Below, one piece after another: positions 3,783 through 60,247 of a DNA stretch of 64,000 nt (within the stretch, counting starts at the first letter, position 1; every line of letters starts with the position of its first letter). The DNA is from Patescibacteria group bacterium (GTDB taxonomy: Bacteria; Patescibacteriota; Patescibacteriia; CAIXNZ01), in the NCBI GenBank assembly GCA_028714455.1, contig JAQTMG010000002.1, positions 38,047-102,046 on the forward strand. Direction: 5' to 3'. The position numbers and the translations under genes were made by a program. The notes beneath the pieces were generated by a model. That model searched no databases and was not told the origin of the DNA. It saw only the letters and a program-made list of their open reading frames with translations.

Positions 3783-5042
3783 ATGTTTAATAACAAAAGA
3801 ATAAAAAAAATTGAGGCACTGGAAATTTTGGATTCACGCGGCAATCCGACTCTTGAAGTTAAAGTTATTTTGAAAAATGGCTTGACAGGCACGGCCATGG
3901 TGCCTTCGGGCGCTTCAAAGGGCAGTCATGAGGCGATAGAATTGCGCGACAATGATAAGAAACGATATGGCGGTCAGGGCGTGCTAAAAGCGATCAAGCA
4001 CGTGAATGTCGAACTTAACGCTTTATTGAAAAATACTGACGTGACTGATCAACAAGATATTGACCGCCTGATGATTCATCTGGATGATACGGAGAATAAG
4101 GCAAATATCGGCGCTAACGCCATGCTTGGCGTTTCTCTGGCCTGTGCCAAGGCAGGTGCCAATTCAGAAAATATGCCGCTTTATAAATATCTGCGACACG
4201 TTTATAAAATCCATTACAAATCATTTCATTTACCCAGACCAATGATGAATGTGCTTAATGGCGGTAAGCACGCTGATTGGGCGACTGATGTTCAGGAATT
4301 CATGATTATACTCAAGGCCAATTCAATGGCCAAGAGGGTTCAGATCGGCAGCGAGATATTTCATTCTCTGGCTGGTATTCTCAAGGAGAAGGGGTATGAA
4401 AATTTAGTGGGTGACGAGGGCGGCTTTGCTCCCAAATTGAAAAAGAATGAGATGGCTTTGGATTTTTTGGTCGCGGCTATAAAGAAAGCAGGATATAAAC
4501 TGGGCAAGGAAGTTGATCTGGGCATTGATTGCGCGGCCTCTGAATTTTACACGCCGTCAAAAAAAATCTATAAGTTGAATGGCAAAAAGTTTACCTCAAC
4601 CCGACTCGTTAATTTGTATAGAAAATGGGTCAAGAAATATAAACTGATTTCGATCGAAGACGGACTTGCCGAAGATGATTGGCAATCGTGGCGAGTGCTC
4701 ACAAAAAAGCTGGGCGGAAAATGTATGTTAATCGGTGATGACCTTTTTGTGACAGACAGCGAGCGTCTGCAAAAGGGGATTAATATTCAGGCCGCCAACG
4801 CAATTTTGATAAAGCCGAACCAGATCGGTACCCTGACCGAGACAGTCGCGACTATTTACACCGCCAAGATGAATAATTATAAAGTTATTATTTCTCACCG
4901 AAGCGGCGAGACCTGCGACAGTTTTATTTCGGATTTAGCCGTGGCAGTTAATGCTGAATTTATAAAGGCGGGTTCATTGAGCCGAGGAGAAAGGGTAGCG
5001 AAATATAACCGGCTTTTGGAAATCGAGAAAGAATTAGCTTAA
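3783..5042 (+). CDS. eno: enolase
   Basis: ALEILDSRGNPTLEV, SGASKG..EA.ELRD and the IKPNQIGTLTET signature. Confidence 0.95.
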   Translation: MFNNKRIKKIEALEILDSRGNPTLEVKVILKNGLTGTAMVPSGASKGSHEAIELRDNDKKRYGGQGVLKAIKHVNVELNALLKNTDVTDQQDIDRLMIHLDDTENKANIGANAMLGVSLACAKAGANSENMPLYKYLRHVYKIHYKSFHLPRPMMNVLNGGKHADWATDVQEFMIILKANSMAKRVQIGSEIFHSLAGILKEKGYENLVGDEGGFAPKLKKNEMALDFLVAAIKKAGYKLGKEVDLGIDCAASEFYTPSKKIYKLNGKKFTSTRLVNLYRKWVKKYKLISIEDGLAEDDWQSWRVLTKKLGGKCMLIGDDLFVTDSERLQKGINIQAANAILIKPNQIGTLTETVATIYTAKMNNYKVIISHRSGETCDSFISDLAVAVNAEFIKAGSLSRGERVAKYNRLLEIEKELA

Positions 5043-5088
5043 TCAAATAGTAAAAAAGTCTGCCGTAAAAGCGGGCTTTTTTATTTAC

Positions 5089-5175
5089 GCCCATTGTCAT
5101 TCCGAATGTAATGAGGAATCTATAACATGTAGTGGATTCTTCGCTCCGCTCTGAATGACGGAGAGGGCAATGGGC
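5089..5175. repeat. palindromic repeat element family A, copy 1 (core GTCATTCCGAATGTAATGAGGAATCT ... GATTCTTCGCTCCGCTCTGAATGAC with variable outer stem GCCCATTG/CAATGGGC)
   Basis: Near-identical cores at 24041-24129 and 48335-48420; long imperfect hairpin. Confidence 0.8.
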
Positions 5176-5183
5176 TTGTCCTG

Positions 5184-5387: not shown

Positions 5388-5579
5388 ATGCTGAGATATT
5401 CCAAGCTAAGCAAAGAGGAGCTTAGGGAGTTGAAGGCTAAGTCGATGTCAGAAGAGGATGTAAAGAGAATGCGCAAACTTGATGAAGAGACTAGCTGGAT
5501 CCTTTCTATGCATCAAATCAGTGAAGTACACGGCGAAGAACGAGCGTCCGGTAAAGCGAAGCTAAAACGCAAGAGATAA
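5388..5579 (+). CDS. small highly charged hypothetical protein (63 aa)
   Basis: Strong SD (CCAAGGAGGTCTCATG), own promoter and terminator; ~180 nt structured leader. Confidence 0.45.
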   Translation: MLRYSKLSKEELRELKAKSMSEEDVKRMRKLDEETSWILSMHQISEVHGEERASGKAKLKRKR

Positions 5580-5592
5580 CTTTTGCGCTCAA

Positions 5593-5892: not shown

Positions 5893-7464
5893 ATGAATAA
5901 GACAGAAAAAGTAAAAAATCTGCCTTTTGTTTTGGTTATTTTGGACGGCTGGGGTATTGCGCCAGCCAGCCCAAGTAATTCTATTTCCTTGGCTAAAAAG
6001 CCCAACGTGGACTATTTTTTGAAGCACTACCCAAATACGCAGCTCATCGCTTCGGGAGAAAAAGTCGGTCTTAAGAAAAATGAAGATGGAAATTCAGAAG
6101 CTGGGCATATGAATATCGGTGCTGGCAGAATTGTGAAGCAAGATCAGATCATGATTTCGGCAATGATAAAAAATAAAAGTTTCTTCAAAAATCCTGCTTT
6201 ACTTGAAGCGGTTAAGCATGCCCGCAAATTCAAATCAAACATTCATATAATGGGGCTTTTATCAAATGGCGAAAGCGCCCATTCTGATCCGGAACATCTT
6301 TTTGCGCTCCTGGAATTTTTACACAAACAAAAATTTCACAAGATTTATTTGCACATTTTTACTGACGGCCGCGATTCGCCGCCGCATGCGGCTGCGCGCC
6401 TGATGAACAAGCTGATTAATAATTTTAAAAATAGCGAGACCATTTCCACTGTCATGGGCCGATTTTACGCCATGGATCGCATTAAAAAATGGAATAGGAC
6501 AGAAGCAGCTTATAACGCCATGGTCATGGGTGACGGTTTGGTTTCTGATAATCCTTATAAAGCAGTTTCCGAAGCCTATAATCGTGGTGAGACAGATGAA
6601 TTCATTATTCCCACAATAATCAGAAATCCGAAAAAGAACCCGAAATTTATTAGTAATAATGATTCGGTTATATTTTTCAACCTGCGGTCTGATCGAGCGC
6701 GCCAAATCACCAAGCCATTTGTCCAGAAAAATTTTGAGAATGAAAATCCGGGCGCTTTCAAAAGGCATAAAGTTTTAAAAAATCTTAAATTCGTGGCGCT
6801 AACTAATTTCGGGCCAGACCTCGATGATATAAAAAATGTTTATGAGGGCCAGGAACTTGTTAATACTTTACCTTTCGCGCTAAAAGATATTAGGCAGGAA
6901 TACCTGGCCGAGCGCGAAAAATACGCACACGTAACTTACTTTTTTAATGGCGGCCATAATAGGCCTGTTAATGGCGAAATTTGGAGGCAAGTAAAATCAG
7001 AAGGCGCTCAAAATTACGAGACCTTTCCACAGATGTCAATTGTGACTTTGACTGATATAGTTTGCCAGGATGTTAAATCAAATGATTTTGATTTTATTAC
7101 AGTAAATTTTGCCAACGCCGACATGCTTGGTCATACTGGTAATATTGCGGCAGCTATTAAGGCGGTTGAATATATTGACAGTTGCTTGGGAAAAATTTAT
7201 AAAGCTTTAGAGAAAAAGAAAGGCACGCTAATGATTACGGCTGATCATGGCAATGCCGAAGAGATGATGAATATTAAAACACACGAGAAAGATACGGAAC
7301 ATAGTACAAATCCCGTGCCGCTGATAATTATTCATCCAGGTTTAACCAAGAAAAAATTAAAATTAAGAAAAGGTATATTGGGTGATGTGGCGCCAACAAT
7401 TTTGGCGTTGATGGGCCTAAAAGAGCCAAAGGAAATGACCGGGCGATCGCTGATTGTTAGTTGA
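5893..7464 (+). CDS. gpmI: 2,3-bisphosphoglycerate-independent phosphoglycerate mutase
   Basis: VLVILDGWGIAP, GNSEAGHMNIGAGR (catalytic Ser), ITADHGNAEEM. Confidence 0.9.
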   Translation: MNKTEKVKNLPFVLVILDGWGIAPASPSNSISLAKKPNVDYFLKHYPNTQLIASGEKVGLKKNEDGNSEAGHMNIGAGRIVKQDQIMISAMIKNKSFFKNPALLEAVKHARKFKSNIHIMGLLSNGESAHSDPEHLFALLEFLHKQKFHKIYLHIFTDGRDSPPHAAARLMNKLINNFKNSETISTVMGRFYAMDRIKKWNRTEAAYNAMVMGDGLVSDNPYKAVSEAYNRGETDEFIIPTIIRNPKKNPKFISNNDSVIFFNLRSDRARQITKPFVQKNFENENPGAFKRHKVLKNLKFVALTNFGPDLDDIKNVYEGQELVNTLPFALKDIRQEYLAEREKYAHVTYFFNGGHNRPVNGEIWRQVKSEGAQNYETFPQMSIVTLTDIVCQDVKSNDFDFITVNFANADMLGHTGNIAAAIKAVEYIDSCLGKIYKALEKKKGTLMITADHGNAEEMMNIKTHEKDTEHSTNPVPLIIIHPGLTKKKLKLRKGILGDVAPTILALMGLKEPKEMTGRSLIVS

Positions 7465-7541: not shown

Positions 7542-9131
7542 ATGACTAAACTAAAAAATAAACCCGTAGCGCTCTTAATACTTGATGGTTTTGGCATTGC
7601 GCCGCCAGCTCCGGGCAACGCCATTAGCCAGGCCAAAAAACCAAATATTGATAAATACATAGCCACCTATCCTTCAATGGCGCTGGTTGCTTCTGGCGAT
7701 TCGGTCGGTCTTTCCTGGGGGGAGATGGGCACTTCAGAAATCGGTCATCAAAATATAGGTTCAGGCATGATTGTCTATCAGTGGTTGCCCAGAATCAATA
7801 AAGCGATTTCTGACGGCACGTTTTTAAAAAACGAAGCATTTTTAAAAGCCGCGGCGCACGTTAAGAAAAATAAATCAAAGCTGCACCTCTTCGGCTTGGT
7901 CTCATCGGGCGGAGTTCATTCGCACATTGATCATTTATATTCTTTACTGCAATTTGCCAGCCGGCAAAAAATAAATGAAGTTTACATTCACGTGATTCTC
8001 GACGGCCGTGATAGCATTTACAACACGGGCAAAGGTTTTGTTGAAGAACTGTTAAATAAAATTAAAGAATTAAGAGTTAACGCGAAAATCGCCGACATAT
8101 CAGGCCGTTTTTACGCCATGGACCGCGATAATCATTGGGAAAGAACCGAAAAAGCCTTTAACGCCATGGTTAAGGGGGAGAGCGATGAAAAATTTGAAGA
8201 TCCGATTAAAGCCGTAGAGAGTTCTTACAAAAAAAAGGTTTACGATGAAGAATTTGTGCCGGCGGTAATTACAAAAAAAGGCAAACCAGTCGGTTTGATT
8301 GAAGATAAAGACGCCGTGATTTTTTTCAATTTCCGCGCCGATCGAGCCAGACAGATTTCCGAGGCGTTTATACTGCCGGAATTTGATAAATTTCCTCGTC
8401 CTGATTTTTCCAAATTGTTTTTTGTGGGCATGACGCAATACGATAAAGATTTACCACTTGACGCCTTTGCTTTCGCGCCGATTGAAATAAAAAAACCTTT
8501 GGCTAAAATTTTGAGCGACGCGGGTCTGAAGCAGTTGCATATAGCTGAAACAGAAAAATACGCTCACGTGACCTATTTTTTCAATGGCGGCGTGGAAGAG
8601 CCATTTCCTGGCGAGGATCGCATTGTTATTCCTTCGCCGCGCGTGCCCTCTTTTGATCAAAAACCCGAGATGTCCGCTTATAAAGTTACGGACGAAATCG
8701 TGAAAGCTGTTTCAGAAAACAAATATGATTTTATCGTGGCCAATTTTGCCAATACCGATATTGTGGCCCACACCGGTAACCTGAAAGCGACAATTGAGGC
8801 CGCCGAAGTGGTTGATAAATGCGTGGGCAAAATAATAAATTTGATTTTAAGCAAAAACGGCGTTGTTTTTTTGACTGCCGATCACGGCAATGGCGAAGAA
8901 TTACAAAACATCAAAACAGGGGAAATGGATAAGGAACACAGTACTAATCCCGTGCCGTTTATAATCATTGGTCATCAGTGGGAAGGCAAAAACCTTGGCC
9001 TGCCAGACAGCGTAGGCGGCGATTTAAGCTTAGTTACGCCTTCCGGTGTCTTAGCCGATGTAGCGCCCACGATTTTGAAGGTAATGGGCTTTAAACCCTC
9101 GAGTGAAATGACAGGAACGCCATTGATTTAG
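7542..9131 (+). CDS. gpmI: 2,3-bisphosphoglycerate-independent phosphoglycerate mutase, divergent tandem paralog
   Basis: LLILDGFGIAP, GTSEIGHQNIGSG, LTADHGNGEEL; roughly 40% identical by eye to the upstream copy. Confidence 0.88.
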   Translation: MTKLKNKPVALLILDGFGIAPPAPGNAISQAKKPNIDKYIATYPSMALVASGDSVGLSWGEMGTSEIGHQNIGSGMIVYQWLPRINKAISDGTFLKNEAFLKAAAHVKKNKSKLHLFGLVSSGGVHSHIDHLYSLLQFASRQKINEVYIHVILDGRDSIYNTGKGFVEELLNKIKELRVNAKIADISGRFYAMDRDNHWERTEKAFNAMVKGESDEKFEDPIKAVESSYKKKVYDEEFVPAVITKKGKPVGLIEDKDAVIFFNFRADRARQISEAFILPEFDKFPRPDFSKLFFVGMTQYDKDLPLDAFAFAPIEIKKPLAKILSDAGLKQLHIAETEKYAHVTYFFNGGVEEPFPGEDRIVIPSPRVPSFDQKPEMSAYKVTDEIVKAVSENKYDFIVANFANTDIVAHTGNLKATIEAAEVVDKCVGKIINLILSKNGVVFLTADHGNGEELQNIKTGEMDKEHSTNPVPFIIIGHQWEGKNLGLPDSVGGDLSLVTPSGVLADVAPTILKVMGFKPSSEMTGTPLI

Positions 9132-12764: not shown

Positions 12765-12860
12765 GATGGGCGAAAATGGCCATCCTGCGCCGTATCGCAG
12801 GATTGTAGAGACGCGGTGCACCGCGTCTCTACGGCGTTTTACGCCAGCCATTTTCGCCCT
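12764..12860. repeat. REP-like composite palindrome family B, copy 1 (outer IR GGGCGAAAATGGC/GCCATTTTCGCCC; inner GTAGAGACGCGGTGCACCGCGTCTCTAC)
   Basis: Perfect 28-bp GC-rich palindrome inside nested hairpins; related copies at 32085-32203 and 59968-59995. Confidence 0.8.
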
Positions 12861-22758: not shown

Positions 22759-22790
22759 TATATCCGCAGCAGCTTTTGGCGCAGGCGGAT

Positions 22791-22819
22791 TTGACAAAAA
22801 TTATACTCCTGCTATACTG
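22791..22819 (+). promoter_or_regulatory. promoter TTGACAAAA-N17-TATACT for the rplJ-rplL operon
   Basis: Followed by a ~200-nt leader, a possible L10 autoregulatory leader. Confidence 0.55.
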
Positions 22820-22977
22820 TATTTATAACCGCAGACAATAGGTTTTCGCAAGATGTAAATCCTATCGAGGTTGTAAAATCAATAATTGATTTTTTATCGT
22901 ATTGTCTGTGGGAAACCGCAGATTTTTTTGTTTTAGATATTGGAGATTGGTGACTGGAGATTAGCGAAAGGAAAAAT

Positions 22978-24027: not shown

Positions 24028-24040
24028 AAAGTACAAAAAA

Positions 24041-24129
24041 CCACCCTGTCATTCCGAATGTAATGAGGAATCTAGAACTTAATAATAAAAGTAATAGATC
24101 CTTCGCTACGCTCTGGATGACAGGGTGGT
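24041..24129. repeat. palindromic repeat element family A, copy 2 (outer stem CCACCCTG/CAGGGTGG), doubling as the rplL terminator
   Basis: Followed by TTTTATTTT. Confidence 0.8.
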
Positions 24130-24130
24130 T

Positions 24131-26368
24131 TTATTTTATATGTGTGAGGTCGATTGAGTAGATTTGGTTGTTATTGACCAGATACATTTTTTTGTCTTTT
24201 TCTGACACATCAAAAGCTCGCAGGCCGTCAAATTTTGAACTGTAGTATTGGGTAATCAACTGGCCCTCTTTATCCAGCACGACAACTCTATTATTTTTCG
24301 GTTCCATGACGTAAATGTAATTTGTGCCATCGCTGGTTAAAAGCTGGGTTGGCGCTTCAAGGCCCGGGTCAAGGTTTTTTATGTCAAAAGTTTTTTGCGC
24401 GCCCTTGTTGAATTTATCAATCTTGCCCGTAGAATCAAGCAGCCAGATATTTGAATCAATGCCTAGCGACAAGATATTTTTCATGTCAAAAGGATTTTTT
24501 AGCCAGGTAGCGCCCGCGTCGTAGCCGGTTTCGCTCGAGGTGTATCTGTAAATTTGATTGTTAGACAAGTCAGCGGCATAGAGTCGGCCATTGTAAAAGG
24601 CAAAAGCAATAATTTTTCCTTTGGCCGGCAAGGTTAGGTCGATGGGCATGAAAGAACCGTTTTTGTGTTCCACAAAGCCGTTTTTATCCTGATAGGCGAG
24701 TATCTGATTGCCCGCGACTTTCACTTTAGTAATTTTGCCGATAGCTGACAAATTAGAAGTAAACGCATCTTGTTGTTTATTGGCTAAATTATATCGAAAG
24801 ACAGAGTTATTGTTGGAATCAAAGGCCAAGAGGAAGCCACTATAAAAAATTAGATTGGCGATGTTGGGTTTATTTTCCTCGCTCAAGTTAGCCAGTAGAG
24901 TCGGTTCTTCAATATCAACGATGTGGCGAAGTTTGGCAATGACCGCCTGGATTTCAGAATTTAAATTTTGATAGCTTTCTTTTTGCTTTTGCGAATTGAT
25001 GGGCAGGGTGGCCAGAATATTTTGCGCCTCCTCGATTTCGGTTCTGGCCTTGGCCTCGTCACCGATAATGATGTCTGACTCGGCCTGGGCCTTTTTTATC
25101 TCTATCTGGTCAACTATGCTTTGAAAAGCCGGATTATCAGTCGAATTATTTTTCACTTGTTTGAAATAAGCGGTTGAAAAAAGGAAGAGAATGACAAAAG
25201 CGATAACCACGGCTATGAGCAGTTTGGAAAAACGCGGTATTTTGGCCAATTGAGTTTTGAGATAAATAAGTTTTAAACGCAGCCAGAGCTTGGTTTTTTC
25301 CATTTTTTCGCCGTAGAAAGGAGTTCTCTGCAATGTTTTTCGAAACGACTTATTTAATTTCAGTTTGAGACTGCCCAGAGGCGCTTTGGTGGCTTCAAAG
25401 GCGCCGGTTTCGTCGTTCAAACTGGGCAGAGCCGGTTGCTTAGCAGCCATTTTACGCTCCTGCAGATTTTTTTCCATTGAATCCCACATTTTTTTGAGCG
25501 GAATCATGATGGCTCCGCCAAAACCCTTGGCAATCGACCAGAACGAGGGCGAGAGTAGTTTTTCGGTCGAGCTCTCTGTCTTGGTCAGATCGGAAATGGA
25601 AGTCACTGATTTTGGTATGGCTGATTGCGCTTCGTGTTCGCTGGAAGAATTTTTTACGATAATGGCCGCGAAGTTTTGGCCCTCGGTTTGGAGCAAAGAA
25701 TTTTTAAAATATTCAGCGGCCTTGTGAATGGGCAGGGAAGTGATGGTCTTTTGAATTCTTTCCAGCGTGACAAAATTCAGGAAACTGCTGTTGGAAAGAA
25801 ATAAATAGTCGGGCGGGTTTAATTCGCCTTCCATGAAATTGGAAAAGAGTTTGTGCGCGTTATCTGTTTTAATTTCATCGGAACTTTTTGTTTGCCTCAA
25901 GTCAATGGTCTTGTAATCCTGCTTGGTTTTATGAACCAGGTATAAAGAGATGTCATTGGAATAGGAAACGCAGAGCTTATTATGGTGCAGCACGCCCACG
26001 GCCAGATTTATTTTTTCCTTGATCGTGTTTTCATTCAAACTGCCGACCAGATAAAATTTCTTTTCCGCGATCAGCTGGTTAAATCTTTGGTTCACGCGTT
26101 CCAGGGCGCTCTCAAACGCGGCCGCGATGTCCTCACTATTTTCATCTGTCTCGCCGTAATACGATTCTTCCAGCGCGTCAATCAGCTGCGTGATAATGTA
26201 GGGGTTTTCCCGGCTGGGTACATTAATTTCAATAATGCCAAAAAGACGACCCATTTGGTCTTCCAGCGCCAGATTCGGCTCACTAATAAAAAGCTTGCAG
26301 GTCGAAGCCGCCCTGCTGCCGTAATAATTTATAAATATGTTGGCAAACTGACTGCTAAATTCAGGCAT
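24131..26368 (-). CDS. large hypothetical membrane-anchored protein (745 aa; single TM ~aa 380, beta-rich C-terminal domain)
   Basis: Intact ORF; LLIAVVIAFVILFLF TM helix; no enzymatic motif seen. Confidence 0.5.
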   Translation of the reverse strand: MPEFSSQFANIFINYYGSRAASTCKLFISEPNLALEDQMGRLFGIIEINVPSRENPYIITQLIDALEESYYGETDENSEDIAAAFESALERVNQRFNQLIAEKKFYLVGSLNENTIKEKINLAVGVLHHNKLCVSYSNDISLYLVHKTKQDYKTIDLRQTKSSDEIKTDNAHKLFSNFMEGELNPPDYLFLSNSSFLNFVTLERIQKTITSLPIHKAAEYFKNSLLQTEGQNFAAIIVKNSSSEHEAQSAIPKSVTSISDLTKTESSTEKLLSPSFWSIAKGFGGAIMIPLKKMWDSMEKNLQERKMAAKQPALPSLNDETGAFEATKAPLGSLKLKLNKSFRKTLQRTPFYGEKMEKTKLWLRLKLIYLKTQLAKIPRFSKLLIAVVIAFVILFLFSTAYFKQVKNNSTDNPAFQSIVDQIEIKKAQAESDIIIGDEAKARTEIEEAQNILATLPINSQKQKESYQNLNSEIQAVIAKLRHIVDIEEPTLLANLSEENKPNIANLIFYSGFLLAFDSNNNSVFRYNLANKQQDAFTSNLSAIGKITKVKVAGNQILAYQDKNGFVEHKNGSFMPIDLTLPAKGKIIAFAFYNGRLYAADLSNNQIYRYTSSETGYDAGATWLKNPFDMKNILSLGIDSNIWLLDSTGKIDKFNKGAQKTFDIKNLDPGLEAPTQLLTSDGTNYIYVMEPKNNRVVVLDKEGQLITQYYSSKFDGLRAFDVSEKDKKMYLVNNNQIYSIDLTHIK

Positions 26369-32026: not shown

Positions 32027-32084
32027 AATCGCAATTTATCAAACCAAGGCGGAGCAGAAATGCTTCGCCTTTTAATTTTAGGAG

Positions 32085-32203
32085 AGGCGAAAACGGCCCA
32101 TTACGTAGAGACGCGACATGCCGCGTCTCTACAACGGTTTTTTTGCACGCCGTAGAGACACGGCGCGCCGTGTCTCTACAACGGTCGTGGGCCGTTTTCG
32201 CGA
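32085..32203. repeat. REP-like composite palindrome family B, copy 2 (outer IR CGAAAACGGCCCA/TGGGCCGTTTTCG; two inner palindromes GTAGAGACGCGACATGCCGCGTCTCTAC and GTAGAGACACGGCGCGCCGTGTCTCTAC)
   Basis: Perfect 28-bp palindromes at 32105-32132 and 32152-32179. Confidence 0.85.
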
Positions 32204-36167: not shown

Positions 36168-37751
36168 ATGTCATACGCCATAGGATTTATAGCCGCTTTT
36201 ATTCTGTCGATAGCTTTTACTCTTTTAGTAAAAAAAATAGCGCTCAAAATAAAGCTGATAGATTTTCCCGACTTCAAAAGGAAAATTCACAAAACCCCGA
36301 TTCCGCTTCTGGGCGGGCTGGCGGTTTTTTTTAGTTTCGCGCTCATTTTAGTCTACTACGCTTTTTTTACAGATTTGATTTTATTTGATTTTATCGTGCC
36401 CAAATACGTGCTGGGCATAATCTTGGCCGGTCTGGTTGTCATAGCCGGGGGAATTTTAGATGATAAATTTAATTTAAAACCAAGATACCAAATCATTTTT
36501 CCGATTGTCGCCACGCTAATAATAATCGGGAGCGGAATCGGCATCTCGCACATCAGAAATCCGTTTGGTGGCATCATCAGTTTTAACAACTGGCAATTGA
36601 TTTTGTTCTGGCTGCATGGCACGCCGTATAAAATTACTCTCCTGGCCGATCTTTTCACTTTTATCTGGCTTTTGGGCATGATGTACACCACCAAACTCTT
36701 GGACGGTCTTGACGGTTTGGTTTCCGGAGTCACGGTTATCGGTTGCCTGGTGATTGCTTTTGTGGCCTTGAGCAAAACCGTCGCTCAACCCAATACGGCT
36801 TTAATCGCGTTAATTCTGGCGGGGGCGTTCGCGGGTTTTTTACTTTTTAATTTTAATCCGGCCAAGATATTTTTAGGCGAAGGCGGCAGTTTGTTTGCCG
36901 GCCTGATGCTCGGCACCCTGGCCATCATCTCCGGTTCCAAAGTCGCCACCACTCTTTTAATTCTCGGCGTGCCGATTCTGGATGTGATCTGGGTAATTTT
37001 GAGAAGAATTTTTTATCACCGACCAATCAGTTTTGCCGATAAAACACATCTGCACTTCCGCCTGCTGGACATTGGTTTTTCCCAGCGCCAGGCCGTCATA
37101 TTTATTTACGTCCTGACCGCTTTATTTGGCGGCGCATCTCTGTTCTTGCAATCCTTTGGGAAAATGATAGAATTAATTATACTCTCGGTGTTCATGCTGG
37201 TTTTAGCCGTTACTTTAGTTGTGATTTATAAAAATAAGAATAATAATCTCGGGCCTGTCTCGAAAAGCAAGTCCGTAACTTTAAGAAAAAATATGAATAA
37301 AAAAAATTTAAAAATCCTGGTTCCAGTTGCCGTTGTTTTGATTTTTATCGCGCTGGTCGCGTGCGTCTATTTTTATTATGTCCAATCGGCCATGGCCACG
37401 GTTACGATTCGGGGACACGTGATAAAGGCGCAGGTAGCTGACAGTCCCGAAGAGCAAGCGCTAGGATTGTCCGGTAAGAAAAACTTGGGCGACAATAGCG
37501 GCTTGCTTTTTGTTTATTCGGACAGTCGCTACAGGACTTTCTGGATGAAAGACATGAAATTCCCCATAGACATAATTTGGATTAACGACAATAAAATTGT
37601 CTACATCGAAAAAAATGCTCCGGTCCCGGCCGATCCTGAAAACCCAGCTATTTTTACCAAGGGCGAGGTGAATAGGGTTCTCGAAGTCAAGGCCGGCTGG
37701 ACTGATAAAAATAACATTCAGGTCGGCGATGAGGTTGGTATAAAGTTTTAA
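36168..37751 (+). CDS. polyprenyl-phosphate N-acetylhexosamine-1-phosphate transferase (MraY/WecA family) fused to a C-terminal DUF192 domain
   Basis: LDDKFNL and LLDGLDGLVSG motifs; C-terminal FPIDIIWI...LEVKAGWTDKN typical of DUF192. Confidence 0.7.
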   Translation: MSYAIGFIAAFILSIAFTLLVKKIALKIKLIDFPDFKRKIHKTPIPLLGGLAVFFSFALILVYYAFFTDLILFDFIVPKYVLGIILAGLVVIAGGILDDKFNLKPRYQIIFPIVATLIIIGSGIGISHIRNPFGGIISFNNWQLILFWLHGTPYKITLLADLFTFIWLLGMMYTTKLLDGLDGLVSGVTVIGCLVIAFVALSKTVAQPNTALIALILAGAFAGFLLFNFNPAKIFLGEGGSLFAGLMLGTLAIISGSKVATTLLILGVPILDVIWVILRRIFYHRPISFADKTHLHFRLLDIGFSQRQAVIFIYVLTALFGGASLFLQSFGKMIELIILSVFMLVLAVTLVVIYKNKNNNLGPVSKSKSVTLRKNMNKKNLKILVPVAVVLIFIALVACVYFYYVQSAMATVTIRGHVIKAQVADSPEEQALGLSGKKNLGDNSGLLFVYSDSRYRTFWMKDMKFPIDIIWINDNKIVYIEKNAPVPADPENPAIFTKGEVNRVLEVKAGWTDKNNIQVGDEVGIKF

Positions 37752-37763
37752 AAATAAACAGAA

Positions 37764-37792
37764 AAGGCCGCTCGATATCGGGCGGTTTTTTT
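37764..37792 (+). terminator. hairpin + T-run after the transferase gene
   Basis: GCCGCTCGATATCGGGCGG TTTTTTT. Confidence 0.5.
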
Positions 37793-37860
37793 ATCCGCCG
37801 AAGCTTTCTCGTACGCCGTAGCTTTAGCAAAGGCGTAAGCGGAGGCGGAATTTGACAATT
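37790..37860. repeat. 70-bp direct repeat, copy A (TTTATCCGCCGAAGCTTTCTCGTACGCCGTAGCTTTAGCAAAGGCGTAAGCGGAGGCGGAATTTGACAATT), ending in a -35 TTGACA
   Basis: ~95% identical to 39190-39258; internal palindrome TACGCC..GGCGTA. Confidence 0.85.
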
Positions 37861-37880
37861 ATTGTAATTTTTGATATATT
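37852..37880 (+). promoter_or_regulatory. promoter TTGACA-N17-TATATT (extended TGATATATT), with the -35 supplied by repeat copy A
   Basis: Drives the 37919 gene. Confidence 0.5.
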
Positions 37881-37918
37881 TTGCCATTGGTTATTAAAAA
37901 CAAAAAAGGAGGAAGAAA

Positions 37919-38545
37919 ATGAATGTCATCGCCTTCTTGGTTCTGCTTTTGTTCTACGTTCTCATCTTCGCGCGGCTCGAGGCGGAGATTGAGGGAGAAT
38001 TTGGCTGGGCAGCCAAACTGCCGACGGCCAGATATCGCCTGAAAGGCGAGGCGCTCGAATATCGCGCGTTTGCGTCGGCTGACACCAGCTGGGTTGAGAT
38101 TGACAGATCCACGATGCGGGGCAAATTCTTTTCAGCTTATATCGGATTCCTTGGCGGCAAGGATTTTACCTGGTATCACCGAGTCGTCGATCTACTTCAG
38201 CTCTTTGTCGCCCACCTGATTATTTATCTGTGCTTTGGTTCTGAACCCAAGTGGGTCTTGGAAGTCCGCGCCGTGGCCACGCTTTTTCTGATCTGGAGTT
38301 TGGAAGATACGTTCTATTTCTTTGTGAACCCGAGGTTTGGGTTTAAGAAGTACAATCCGGAAAGCATCGGATGGCATAAAGATTGGCTGACCATCGGCGG
38401 AATCAGGATTGGAGACAAAGGCATGATGGGTTTGCTGGCTGGCGGCGCCATCCTATTTGTTCTTTCCCTTTTCCTCCACTGGCTTGTCGTCAACGTCATG
38501 CCGGCCGCCCTGTATATTAATGAGGCGGTGAAAAATATTTTTTGA
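37919..38545 (+). CDS. hypothetical membrane protein (208 aa), high GC
   Basis: SD AAAAGGAGGAAGAAAATG; several TM helices. Confidence 0.45.
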   Translation: MNVIAFLVLLLFYVLIFARLEAEIEGEFGWAAKLPTARYRLKGEALEYRAFASADTSWVEIDRSTMRGKFFSAYIGFLGGKDFTWYHRVVDLLQLFVAHLIIYLCFGSEPKWVLEVRAVATLFLIWSLEDTFYFFVNPRFGFKKYNPESIGWHKDWLTIGGIRIGDKGMMGLLAGGAILFVLSLFLHWLVVNVMPAALYINEAVKNIF

Positions 38546-38586
38546 TCGCGCTTGATAAACCGTTCGAACCTTCGGGCGGTTTTTTA

Positions 38587-38615
38587 TTGACAAAAATGGA
38601 AATTTAAGTTAAGTT
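38587..38615 (+). promoter_or_regulatory. conserved promoter TTGACAAAA-N-TAAGTT
   Basis: Spacer 17; ~100-nt leader. Confidence 0.5.
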
Positions 38616-38714
38616 GTTTTTATATAAACAGGGGCTTTTTCCGCGTGGCGGAAGAAGAAACAATGGCTCTTTAAAACATTCAGACCCGGACGGGTCAAAG
38701 AACGGAGGTTCAGA

Positions 38715-39149
38715 ATGGACAAGAAGGCGAAGGCGTTGAAGAGGATTTTAAGCGAGTTTCCCTGGCTTTGGGCGCTAAGCAACGTTTGGTCCGCAAAACA
38801 CGATAGTGTCACGGTTTATCGTGGCGGAAACCCAGGCGAAGAAAAGTTTCGCAGATTTATCTTTGAAATGTTTTTCTTCTGCCAGGAAGAACATAAAAAT
38901 CTTGTCTCCGAATTCAAAATCTTCATCAAATACGACGGTTGTAGCGAGAGCTTTGTTATGATTACTCCGACCCAGGGAATGCCGTTGTTTTTGGGTTATT
39001 ACGATTCTTTTTTTGCAAGAGCCTCTGTACCGGGTGCGCATTGCGTATGTATTACATACAAAGATGGAAACGAGAGAAAATATATGCTATTCCTGCTTCC
39101 CGAAAATTGGCGGGGAATCGCTAAAGCCGCCTGCGAAGTTTGCTGCTAG
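38715..39149 (+). CDS. hypothetical Cys-containing protein (144 aa), high GC
   Basis: SD GGAGGTTCAGAATG. Confidence 0.4.
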   Translation: MDKKAKALKRILSEFPWLWALSNVWSAKHDSVTVYRGGNPGEEKFRRFIFEMFFFCQEEHKNLVSEFKIFIKYDGCSESFVMITPTQGMPLFLGYYDSFFARASVPGAHCVCITYKDGNERKYMLFLLPENWRGIAKAACEVCC

Positions 39150-39189
39150 AATTTATAAACCGCTTGGCTTATGCTGGGCGGTTTTTTCT

Positions 39190-39258
39190 TTATCCGCCGT
39201 AGCTTTCTCGTACGCCTTAGCTTTAGCAAAGGCGTAAGCGGAGGCGGAATTTGACATT
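39190..39258. repeat. 70-bp direct repeat, copy B
   Basis: TTTATCCGCCGTAGCTTTCTCGTACGCCTTAGCTTTAGCAAAGGCGTAAGCGGAGGCGGAATTTGACATT. Confidence 0.85.
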
Positions 39259-39279
39259 ATTTTTAAAATACGCTATCAT
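39251..39279 (+). promoter_or_regulatory. promoter TTGACA-N17-TATCAT for rplU, with the -35 supplied by repeat copy B
   Basis: Spacer 17. Confidence 0.5.
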
Positions 39280-39332
39280 ATTTTCATAAGATTTAGCTCG
39301 GTACTAATCTTTTTTATTTTTAATTTAAGGTT

Positions 39333-39653
39333 ATGTCTAGAATAGCTGTGATTAAAACAGGCGGCAAACAATACAAGGTGAAAGAAGGCGATAAATTTGA
39401 TATTGAAAAACTTATTGGCAAGGAGGGCGATAAAGTCAGCTTTGACCAGATTTTATTGATTGCTGATGAAGATGGCAAAAGCGTTGAACTCGGTAAGCCA
39501 TTTTTAAGCGGCAAAAAAGTTGAAGCCAAAATTGAAAAACAATTTAAAGATGACAAAGTAATGGTGATAAAGTTTAAGAATAAGACCAGATACCGCAGAA
39601 AAAAAGGTCATCGCCAAAATAAAACCCTGATTACGATAAGCAAGATCTCGTAA
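39333..39653 (+). CDS. rplU: 50S ribosomal protein L21
   Basis: MSRIAVIKTGGKQYKVKEGD. Confidence 0.95.
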   Translation: MSRIAVIKTGGKQYKVKEGDKFDIEKLIGKEGDKVSFDQILLIADEDGKSVELGKPFLSGKKVEAKIEKQFKDDKVMVIKFKNKTRYRRKKGHRQNKTLITISKIS

Positions 39654-40748: not shown

Positions 40749-41198
40749 ATGACCCTGGTTTTGTTGATGGTTTTCGCAATCGGCTTGGTTACGCTGATGG
40801 TGGTCACTCGCAAAAAGCGCGGCATCAACCAGGTCAGCGGGTTTTCCGCGACCAATCTTTACCGCGCGGTGGTTGACCCGGCCGAGCTCAAAGAGCGGGC
40901 CCGGACCATCAAAATCATGAACAAACGCCTGCGCTGGGCCAGACATCGGTTGGAACAGCCGCACCTGTGCAAAAAGGCCAAGCTGAAACGCGCCCTTCGG
41001 TATATCCAGGAAGCGCATCGGCATGAATTGTCCGAGATCCGATCCTGCGCTCGCACGCTGGTGAACCTGTTTGGCCGGTATGCCGATGCCAAGATCAGGC
41101 ACCAGCTGGACATGACGCTGAAACCGTCCGCACCCGCCCCGCTGACCAGCAAAAGCAAAGTCGAGGAACTCATCGTTTCCCTGGCCAACGCGGCCTAA
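40749..41198 (+). CDS. hypothetical protein with N-terminal TM helix, Arg/Lys-rich, high GC
   Basis: SD AAAGGAGGCATTCGATG. Confidence 0.4.
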   Translation: MTLVLLMVFAIGLVTLMVVTRKKRGINQVSGFSATNLYRAVVDPAELKERARTIKIMNKRLRWARHRLEQPHLCKKAKLKRALRYIQEAHRHELSEIRSCARTLVNLFGRYADAKIRHQLDMTLKPSAPAPLTSKSKVEELIVSLANAA

Positions 41199-48297: not shown

Positions 48298-48333
48298 AAA
48301 ACGGCGATCATCTGGTCGCCGTTTTTTCTTTTT
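48298..48333 (+). terminator. hairpin AAACGGCGATCATCTGGTCGCCGTTT + T-run
   Basis: Perfect 8-bp stem. Confidence 0.7.
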
Positions 48334-48334
48334 G

Positions 48335-48420
48335 CGCGCTCCGTCATTCCGAATGTGATGAGGAATCTATTACTCCAAAAAGTCATAGATCCTTCGCTTC
48401 GCTCTGGATGACGGAGCGCG
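48335..48420. repeat. palindromic repeat element family A, copy 3 (outer stem GCGCGCTCC/GGAGCGCG)
   Basis: Core GTCATTCCGAATGTGATGAGGAATCT...GATCCTTCGCTTCGCTCTGGATGAC. Confidence 0.8.
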
Positions 48421-48440
48421 TTTCTGTTAAAATAAAGTTC

Positions 48441-50519: not shown

Positions 50520-50557
50520 AAACCCGCCTTTGCAATTAAGCATTGGCGGGCATTTGC

Positions 50558-59680: not shown

Positions 59681-60247
59681 ATGGGGGATGAGTATTTTAA
59701 AAATAAATATCGTGTGCCATCAACACGTTTGGGTCATTGGAATTACGCGGATGGGGGATTTTATTATGTCACCATTTGCACAAAGGATAGGAAATGTTGT
59801 TTAGGCGAAATAAGAGGTAATAATGTTTATTTATCAAAAATTGGAGAGATTGTTTTGGATGAATGGTTGAAAACACAAAAATTAAGGCCAAATGTGGTTT
59901 TGGATGATTTTATTATCATGCCAAACCATATTCACGGAATTATTGTAATTAAAAATAACCAAACCGCCGTAGAGACGCATTGCAATGCGTCTCTACAACG
60001 AACGGAACAGAGACAAAACGCATTTGGCCCGCAAAGAAATAATTTGTCGTCAATTACTCGCGGCTTTAAAGGTTCTGTGGTGAGAAATTGTCGCGAGAAT
60101 AATTTTGATTTTGAATGGCAACCGCGATATTACGAACACATTATCAAAAACGACGAGGATTACGCTCGGATAAAAGGATATATTGCCAATAATCCGGTGA
60201 ATTGGGAATTTGATCGTGATAATCCCAAAACCTTTAAAATATCTTGA
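59681..60247 (+). mobile_element. REP-associated tyrosine transposase (RAYT, IS200/IS605 TnpA-like) with a family-B REP palindrome embedded in-frame
   Basis: HUH motif PNHIHGIIV, catalytic Tyr region RYYEHIIKN; GTAGAGACGCATTGCAATGCGTCTCTAC at 59968-59995 encodes ...AVETHCNASLQRT... Confidence 0.8.
59968..59995. repeat. REP family B palindrome, copy 3 (inside the RAYT ORF)
   Basis: Perfect 28-bp palindrome with the same GTAGAGACGC arms as 12806-12833 and 32105-32179. Confidence 0.85.

Follow-up and report, generated by a model that had tools for sequence, protein, structure and literature searches.

A direct repeat upstream of rplU in a Patescibacteria genome may consist of small palindromic elements lodged between terminators and −35 boxes

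What does it mean when a near-identical direct repeat brackets two small genes and each of its copies runs straight into a −35 box? The question arises in a 64-kb stretch of DNA (the window) from a Patescibacteria group bacterium, where the genes run Clp - GT4 - DUF192 - orfA - orfB - rplU - recR - dnaB and the repeats flank orfA and orfB (Table 1). A first-pass annotation took the repeats to be the junctions of a recently inserted, high-GC two-gene cassette, or else a portable terminator-promoter module that donates a −35 box to the gene behind it. The evidence tips us instead, by a small balance, towards two copies of a low-copy, non-coding, GC-rich palindromic element that resembles repetitive extragenic palindromic (REP) sequences or miniature inverted-repeat transposable elements (MITEs).

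Comparisons were made with contigs of relatives (L001, L002 and so on), the close ones gathered through their similarity in ribosomal protein L21, encoded by rplU. Relative to the window these are species-level lineages, with 80-91% nucleotide identity in rplU, and L005 is the closest (91%). Promoter-like sites and terminators were taken from a 5-kb scan around the locus, and the copy numbers given for repeat families cover the window only. The proteins of orfA and orfB match NCBI proteins PHC97_01455 and PHC97_01460, and L21 was also matched there ('Patescibacteria group bacterium').

The near-identical direct repeats described at first pass are real. A repeat search gave one pair, 37786-37867 and 39185-39266, which is 82 nucleotides (nt) long and 91% identical without gaps, and within it a core (37793-37857 and 39192-39256) agrees at 63 of 65 bases. 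The copies lie 1.4 kb apart. A 46-nt pattern from the core, with up to three mismatches allowed, found these two sites only in the window and matched in none of 100 shuffles. As also described, a stem-loop with a T-tract stands 5′ of both copies, and the repeats end at the TTGACA boxes of the promoter-like sites of orfA and rplU, each scoring 11/12 and together the two best sites of the 5-kb scan. Each copy is wedged exactly between the T-tract of one terminator and the −35 hexamer of the next promoter.

The wedge is a 58-nt nested stem-loop, with 56 of its 58 bases identical in the two copies. A second stem, TACGCC/GGCGTA, lies within outer arms TCCGCC/GGCGGA. As RNA the two copies fold at −25.6 and −28.4 kcal/mol (z −2.8 and −3.9) and as DNA at −14.4 and −17.0 kcal/mol, and the RNA fold of 37755-37860 reaches −44.7 kcal/mol (z −5.6). 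The motif CGCCG(A/T)AGCTTT is present twice in the 58 nt, on the same strand and 18 nt apart. As removing the inner 29 nt leaves another hairpin of the same kind, the 58-nt element is a unit lodged in the loop of a second one. A single unit measures about 29 nt, with complementary arms of 5-7 bp around a conserved core, (G/A)(T/A)AGCTTTA(Y)GC(R)AA. The 58-nt hairpin is not an intrinsic terminator: AAUUUGACA follows the stem, with no U-tract, and the hairpin is absent from the terminator scan that lists the terminators upstream of it. It has no Rfam 15 family, the only window match at gathering score being the L10 leader, and a permissive Rfam scan of 37600-39400 gave chance-level matches on terminators only.

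Which came first, the repeat or the promoter? Six relatives (L005, L024, L028, L029, L034 and L001) have an rplU promoter with no hairpin, reading terminator-TTTTT-ATTTGACA without interruption. In an alignment of the rplU promoter regions of the window and its relatives, copy 2 stands out as a clean insertion, with the T-tract on one side and ATTTGACA on the other, when set against L005, L024, L028, L029 and L001, and the window promoter itself (TTGACA TTATTTTTAAAATACGCTATCATATTTTCATAAGATTTAGC) is orthologous to, and conserved in, those of L025, L005, L024 and L028. L031 provides the corresponding empty site for the orfA promoter, an orthologous site without copy 1. By this comparison the hairpin is a 57-58-nt insertion between a T-tract and a −35 that was already there. 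Because the hairpin-less relatives keep the terminator-ATTTGACA junction at both promoters, the TTGACA box belongs to the resident promoter, and the idea that each repeat donates a −35 does not survive: all six rplU orthologues and the L031 orfA site have kept −35 and promoter without it. The repeat only seems to end in a −35, because both promoters already carried a consensus box. Annotators can take from this that direct repeats may end in a −35 box without marking an insertion; here the promoter came first.

The flanks of the two copies behave differently on their two sides. Similarity stops at the −35, the next 40 nt being matched as well by 345 of 2000 shuffles, and we therefore rejected homology of the orfA and rplU promoters beyond that point. 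Upstream the flanks are alike (none of 2000 shuffles was as good), though the terminators are much less alike than the hairpins. Paralogy of the three local terminators was also considered and dropped, as CCGC...GCGG terminators are common across the window. At most of the window's promoter-like sites with a perfect TTGACA a terminator lies directly against the −35. Since terminators normally abut promoters in this compact genome, the gap between them is almost the sole place that would tolerate an insertion.

The unit is also found well away from orfA and orfB, which speaks against the repeats as cassette boundaries. In the window a third, single-unit member is placed behind a terminator and ahead of the TTGACA in the promoter for the L10 leader (22811-22939) and rplJ. 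L025 has one 29-nt unit (ATCAGCCGTAGCTTTACGCGAAGGCTAAT) at its rplU promoter, between terminator and −35, sharing 21 of 29 bases with the inner unit of copy 1. In L002 a shorter relative (ATCCACCGAAGCGCAAGCAAAGGTGGAT) occurs twice, at the promoters of orfB and rplU (4136-4163 and 4732-4759), the two copies being 95% alike and 0.6 kb apart. L024 has no unit at rplU but carries one at 5142-5170 (L024a), at another terminator-promoter junction near purB; this unit no longer folds, and it agrees with the L025 unit at 24 of 29 bases although the two sites are not orthologous. A further unit in L024, at 5564-5592(-) (L024b), lies in reverse orientation inside the purB 5′ untranslated region (5′UTR). 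The window's purB promoter and leader form an empty site for it, with a clean 27-nt gap (the purB proteins of the window and L024 are 50% identical over their full length). The rplU 5′UTR of L005 holds two tandem mini-hairpins (TCCGCCGAAGGCGGA, TCCGCCTCTGGCGGA) at 1925-1954, followed by a U-rich tract and absent in relatives; L005 is without the promoter-side hairpin.

All clear members of the family are extragenic, and six of the eight adjoin a TTGACA box. Their arms differ in sequence and still pair: TCCGCC/GGCGGA in the window, TCCACC/GGTGGA in L002, TCAGCC/GGCTAA in L025 and CCCTCC/GGAGGG in L024b. Of the cells in seven units and nine pairs, 87% are paired, and both sides have changed in four pairs. 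Covariation scores 0.344, compared with 0.132 in shuffles (0 of 500 reach it) and at most 0.106 with slid partners.

Are orfA and orfB cargo? The 37861-39189 segment had been called high-GC, but at 45.9% (orfA 50.6%, orfB 44.4%) it lies only about one standard deviation (sd) over the window mean of 41.3% (sd 4.2%, 1.3-kb windows), and the neighbouring Clp and dnaB genes have 46.1% and 43.9%. Both genes are syntenic in L001, L002-L004 and L006 at 50-61% amino acid (aa) identity, and orfB is in its syntenic position without orfA in L005 (65% identity) and L028; the junctions in these relatives differ from those in the window. A blastn search with 37752-39332 against phages and plasmids gave no match, and no integrase was found among the open reading frames (ORFs) of 35-42 kb. 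A tRNA or tmRNA remnant serving as an attachment (att) site was rejected, the window having no tRNA genes. On these sequence comparisons orfA and orfB are neither foreign nor a recent cassette.

The segment between the transferase/DUF192 gene and rplU is nonetheless variable among relatives, as had been suspected. Across the clade it holds differing combinations of three unrelated small genes, orfA, orfB and Z, the last encoding a 153-aa cysteine-rich protein. The order is orfA - orfB in the window, L001 and L002; L028 has orfB next to rplU; L025 (the genome of P0012, on a 36.6-kb contig) has no gene in between; and in L035 rplU is preceded by a gene for argininosuccinate synthase. The small genes are separate transcription units, each with its terminator abutting the next promoter; this variable set is a modest but clean case of gene turnover in an otherwise conserved core-gene neighbourhood. 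The variation lies between species-level lineages and does not track the hairpin repeats. The first-pass annotation had also predicted an allele that lacks the two genes and keeps a single repeat. L025 has this layout, with DUF192 followed directly by rplU and one short hairpin between them, but it is another species-level lineage (rplU 82% nt) and not a strain variant. Among the terminators of other relatives, those of orfB type give the best alignment with its own. With 65 nt of 97% identical direct repeat the orfA-orfB segment should be deletable by homologous recombination, and the L025 layout shows that a state without the two genes is tolerated in the clade.

The 29-nt unit is not the only palindrome in the window, which carries further palindromic repeat families in terminator-promoter gaps. 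GTAG palindromes (GTAGAGACGCG...CGCGTCTCTAC) occur at 12805-12832, 32105-32132, 32152-32179 and 59969-59996; they read GTAGAGACRCG...CGYGTCTCTAC, with compensatory changes in the stem. The copies at 12805, 32105 and 32152, and one in L035 (12760-12787), are each nested in a larger outer stem in a terminator-promoter gap, and the 32105/32152 pair lies within an outer stem. Inverted-repeat elements of about 100 nt (…CTGTCATTCCGAATGTAATGAGGAATC…GATCCTTCGCTxCGCTCTGGATGACAG…) are found at 5077-5183, between a terminator and a perfect TTGACA promoter, at 24029-24138, after rplL, and at 48324-48429. The repeats at 5077-5183 and 32084-32200 likewise occupy the gap between a terminator and the next −35. 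Our best reading sets the element in a Patescibacteria genome with several such palindromic families.

The window also encodes a protein resembling tyrosine transposases associated with REPs (RAYTs), from a 188-aa ORF at 59681-60247 (+). It matches NCBIfam REP_Tyr_transpos at E 1e-15 and 57.7 bits (below the cut-off of 80) and Pfam Y1_Tnp at 20.9 bits (below the cut-off of 23), and it has the HUH-like motifs 'HIH' and 'YYEH'. Its coding sequence holds the perfect 28-nt GTAG palindrome at 59969-59996 (GTAGAGACGCATTGCAATGCGTCTCTAC), to which the L035 copy is identical. The ORF is packed between methyltransferase-like and murC-like genes, without flanking repeats. In L030, a 200-aa IS200-like protein (6817-7419 (+)) matches Pfam Y1_Tnp at 25.3 bits, above the cut-off of 23, and is weakly similar to the RAYT-like ORF of the window (tblastn E 2e-4).

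REP elements and REPINs, in which two REPs in inverted orientation form a long hairpin (PMC3337134), have been described together with RAYT transposases by Bertels and Rainey (PMC3116915, PMC3337134; see also PMC5581495). In such systems a cognate single-copy RAYT gene is flanked by the repeats (PMC3337134). The 29- and 58-nt units are likewise short, GC-rich, imperfect extragenic palindromes that form hairpins as single strands. Their arms keep pairing while the sequence drifts, they occur nested or clustered, they lie just after genes and beside A/T tracts, and there is a gene for a RAYT-like HUH protein in the same genome. There are differences too. REPs and REPINs have tens to hundreds of copies per genome, and the 64-kb window here holds three strong sites; the 58-nt element nests two like-oriented units where a REPIN has an inverted doublet; GTAG is found on the core's loop side and not 5′ of the palindrome; and the RAYT-like gene is not flanked by units and carries a different, GTAG palindrome.

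Bacterial MITEs such as Correia, RUP and ERIC are typically about 100-400 bp long. Like them the element is small and non-coding, has terminal inverted repeats, sits in intergenic DNA by promoters and terminators, and is polymorphic for presence and absence between related genomes; unlike them it is only 29-58 nt and has no parent insertion sequence. Its arms are complementary. On either side lie the T-tract and (A)TTTGACA, and comparison with the empty sites brings out no clear duplicated target. Integron attC sites, too, are imperfect palindromes folding in the single-stranded state, and they flank small genes that vary individually. The element has none of their RYYYAAC/GTTRRRY core sites, no integrase was seen among the ORFs of 35-42 kb, the genes come with promoter-like sites and terminators of their own, unlike the promoter-less cassettes of integrons, and one of the three junctions has no hairpin. 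A further likeness is to the GC clusters of yeast mitochondria and the Rickettsia palindromic elements, short GC-rich hairpins in an AT-rich genome that enter A/T tracts and one another, although lineage and sequences differ and no insertion into coding sequence was seen for the 29-nt family. The element resembles a REP or a very small MITE, yet it departs from the REPIN/RAYT pattern in several respects. Much work exists on the small palindromic repeats of Proteobacteria, but hardly any descriptions from Patescibacteria (Candidate Phyla Radiation), whose genomes are streamlined; the literature we searched held none of such palindromic elements in that group. The locus shows that they persist even there, confined to the gap between terminator and −35 and nesting in one another.

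How did the element come to sit at these junctions? The account that we consider somewhat likelier than its negation is a low-copy REP/MITE-like palindrome, present here twice, and not the ends of a cassette. Its spread would be that of a non-autonomous element, or would come from template switches between terminator-promoter junctions that are nearly identical. In this lineage the nested form would have gained its second copy recently, at a neighbouring junction, leaving the 97% identical copies. Any effect on expression would be minor: read-through transcripts would at most gain one more stem-loop, insulating the downstream promoter. Several observations weigh against this account. Copy number is low, three strong sites in 64 kb being all that a covariance model found with its filters off. 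The model was built from the family units, so its strong matches, being its own training sequences, are circular support; its new matches, at 16-19 bits, are no better than those to unrelated DNA (up to 18.5 bits). Two such weak matches (window 50522, L029 5145) were for that reason not counted as members. Neither a clear target-site duplication nor a flanking transposase turned up for the hairpin units. A search for GGCGTAAGCGGAGGCGGAA in a genome contig collection without the source metagenome-assembled genome gave 14 single matches in unrelated taxa, about the chance expectation. The pattern ATCCRCCGWAGC-N(10-40)-GYGGA-N(0-1)-TTTGACA matched, in metagenome contigs of the Joint Genome Institute (JGI), only the known relative L003 and two chance sites inside coding sequence of unrelated high-GC organisms, and in viral contigs nothing. 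The RAYT-like ORF is below the curated cut-off and has no family members beside it, and covariation is no proof of selection, since template switching can yield compensatory changes in a DNA palindrome. Finally, the sole near-identical pair is 1.4 kb apart and would also fit local copying or gene conversion.

That last possibility can be put in a stronger form: the hairpin would be local and non-mobile, a duplicated or decayed terminator-like stem-loop by the rplU promoter, and its copy at the neighbouring junction would stem from gene conversion, or from template switching during replication, by way of nearly identical flanks (GGGCGGTTTTTT to the left and ATTTGACA to the right). The short distance between the copies, in L002 as in the window, and the likeness of the upstream flanks are what such copying would leave behind. 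The loops of orfB terminators (GCTTATGC) resemble the unit core, and the unit model gives 19 bits to a genuine terminator at 50522-50551(-), though this is at noise level. We regard local origin as unlikely but worth holding in mind; it has no ready place for units at unlinked junctions (rplJ, 15 kb away, and the purB region of L024), for a unit reversed inside a 5′UTR, or for the likeness of the L025 and L024a units at non-orthologous sites. The hairpin could also be a selected cis-acting element of strong promoters, either a protein-binding palindrome or cruciform upstream of the −35 or a read-through RNA stem-loop that reinforces termination and insulates the promoter. The preference for TTGACA boxes, those of rplU and rplJ included, and the covarying arms would suit that role. 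It is improbable all the same, as the orthologous rplU promoter does without the hairpin in most relatives, even the closest, and arms spaced from about 10 to 45 nt apart are ill-suited to a dimeric DNA-binding site. The missing U-tract and Rfam match, the member reversed in a 5′UTR and the decay of L024a all point the same way. No more probable is a bolder extension of mobility, in which the 29-nt units are a Patescibacteria-specific class of hairpin that homes to hairpin loops and terminator-promoter junctions. The RAYT-like HUH enzyme, encoded 20 kb away, would mobilise them in trans, and paired copies would be behind repeated gain, loss and reshuffling of Z, orfA and orfB upstream of rplU in the clade. 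The original view of the repeats as att-like junctions or long target duplications of a recent two-gene cassette, or as a portable module supplying the −35, we consider very improbable and largely refuted by this analysis. Direct repeats do bracket both genes, and the interval does differ in gene content among relatives, L025 having a single hairpin and no genes. The synteny of orfA and orfB down to 50% identity with different junctions, the −35 at the empty sites, the ordinary GC content, the lack of any integrase, phage or plasmid link, and the units at junctions unrelated to the interval tell against it, and the L002 repeat pair brackets orfB alone.

Table 1. Features of the locus and of the hairpin-unit family in the window
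Feature	Position	Strand	Remarks
Intrinsic terminator of fused GT4-DUF192 gene	37761-37792	+	stem-loop then T7; seen in fold
Hairpin element, copy 1	37793-37850	+	58 nt, nested; outer arms ATCCGCC/GGCGGAAT; repeat search, fold
Inner 29-nt unit of copy 1	37811-37839	+	GTACGCC GTAGCTTTAGCAAA GGCGTAAG; covariance model 37.7 bits, but training sequence
orfA promoter-like site	37852-37880	+	TTGACA-17-TATATT, TG extension, 11/12
orfA, uncharacterised family	37919-38545	+	208 aa, small membrane protein
orfA terminator and orfB promoter	38557-38582; TTGACA 38587-38592, TAAGTT 38610-38615	+	directly abutting, no hairpin insert
orfB	38715-39149	+	144 aa, conserved N-terminal FPWLWA motif
Intrinsic terminator of orfB	39157-39190 (39157-39184 in terminator scan)	+	fold, terminator scan
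Hairpin element, copy 2	39192-39249	+	58 nt, nested; inner unit 39210-39238
rplU promoter-like site	39251-39279	+	TTGACA-17-TATCAT, 11/12; orthologous to rplU promoters of hairpin-less relatives
rplU (ribosomal protein L21)	39333-39653	+	Pfam PF00829, E 2.8e-33
Third, single-unit member	22762-22790	+	ATCCGCAGCAGCTTTTGGCGCAGGCGGAT; covariance model 35.4 bits, but training sequence

Neither orfA nor orfB has a Pfam, NCBIfam or PADLOC family. The orfA family has 179 representatives at E<=1e-3, small membrane proteins without Pfam annotation, and an AlphaFold 2 (AF2) model of orfA (predicted local distance difference test score, pLDDT, 78) gave no significant fold match in the PDB. The orfB promoter falls in the window repeat families D1/D2. 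Downstream of it is a conserved, structured leader of about 100 nt (about 38616-38714), with an invariant CAGACCCGGACGGGTCAAAGAACGGAGG just upstream of the start codon; the first hairpin differs in sequence but keeps its pairing in L005, L028, L006, L001 and L002. This leader may be a cis-regulatory RNA.

Several other features of the neighbourhood deserve mention. The GT4 and DUF192 domains are fused in one 527-aa ORF (36168-37751) and are encoded by separate, slightly overlapping genes in L001, L002, L025 and L031. In L001 (3425-4612 (-)) and L035 (132-1319 (-)) the variable interval upstream of rplU contains or adjoins a 395-aa gene; it has a precomputed AcrVA2-like Pfam match, and a fresh Pfam scan assigned the L001 copy to no family. 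The rplU 5′UTR holds a conserved hairpin and U-tract at 39291-39322 (AAGATTTAGCTCGGTACTAATCTTTTTT), also present in L001 (6026-6060), L002, L024, L025, L028, L029 and L035. With no Rfam match, it is a candidate attenuator or leader of the L21 operon.

Downstream of rplU, a 149-aa gene between recR and dnaB (40749-41198 (+)) is the most GC-rich stretch near the locus (54-58% GC). It has homologues in L024 and L028 (31-39% identity), and in L001, L002 and L035 the place is taken by ybaB. L006 has five tandem 21-nt units (GATTTTAGTGAGGAAACGTCA) at 2409-2534, within a 119-aa minus-strand ORF downstream of rplU. Elsewhere in the window, two coding stretches 1.64 kb apart (6457-7332 and 8103-8969; repeat families D6 and D8) are 75-77% identical and look like tandem paralogous genes.

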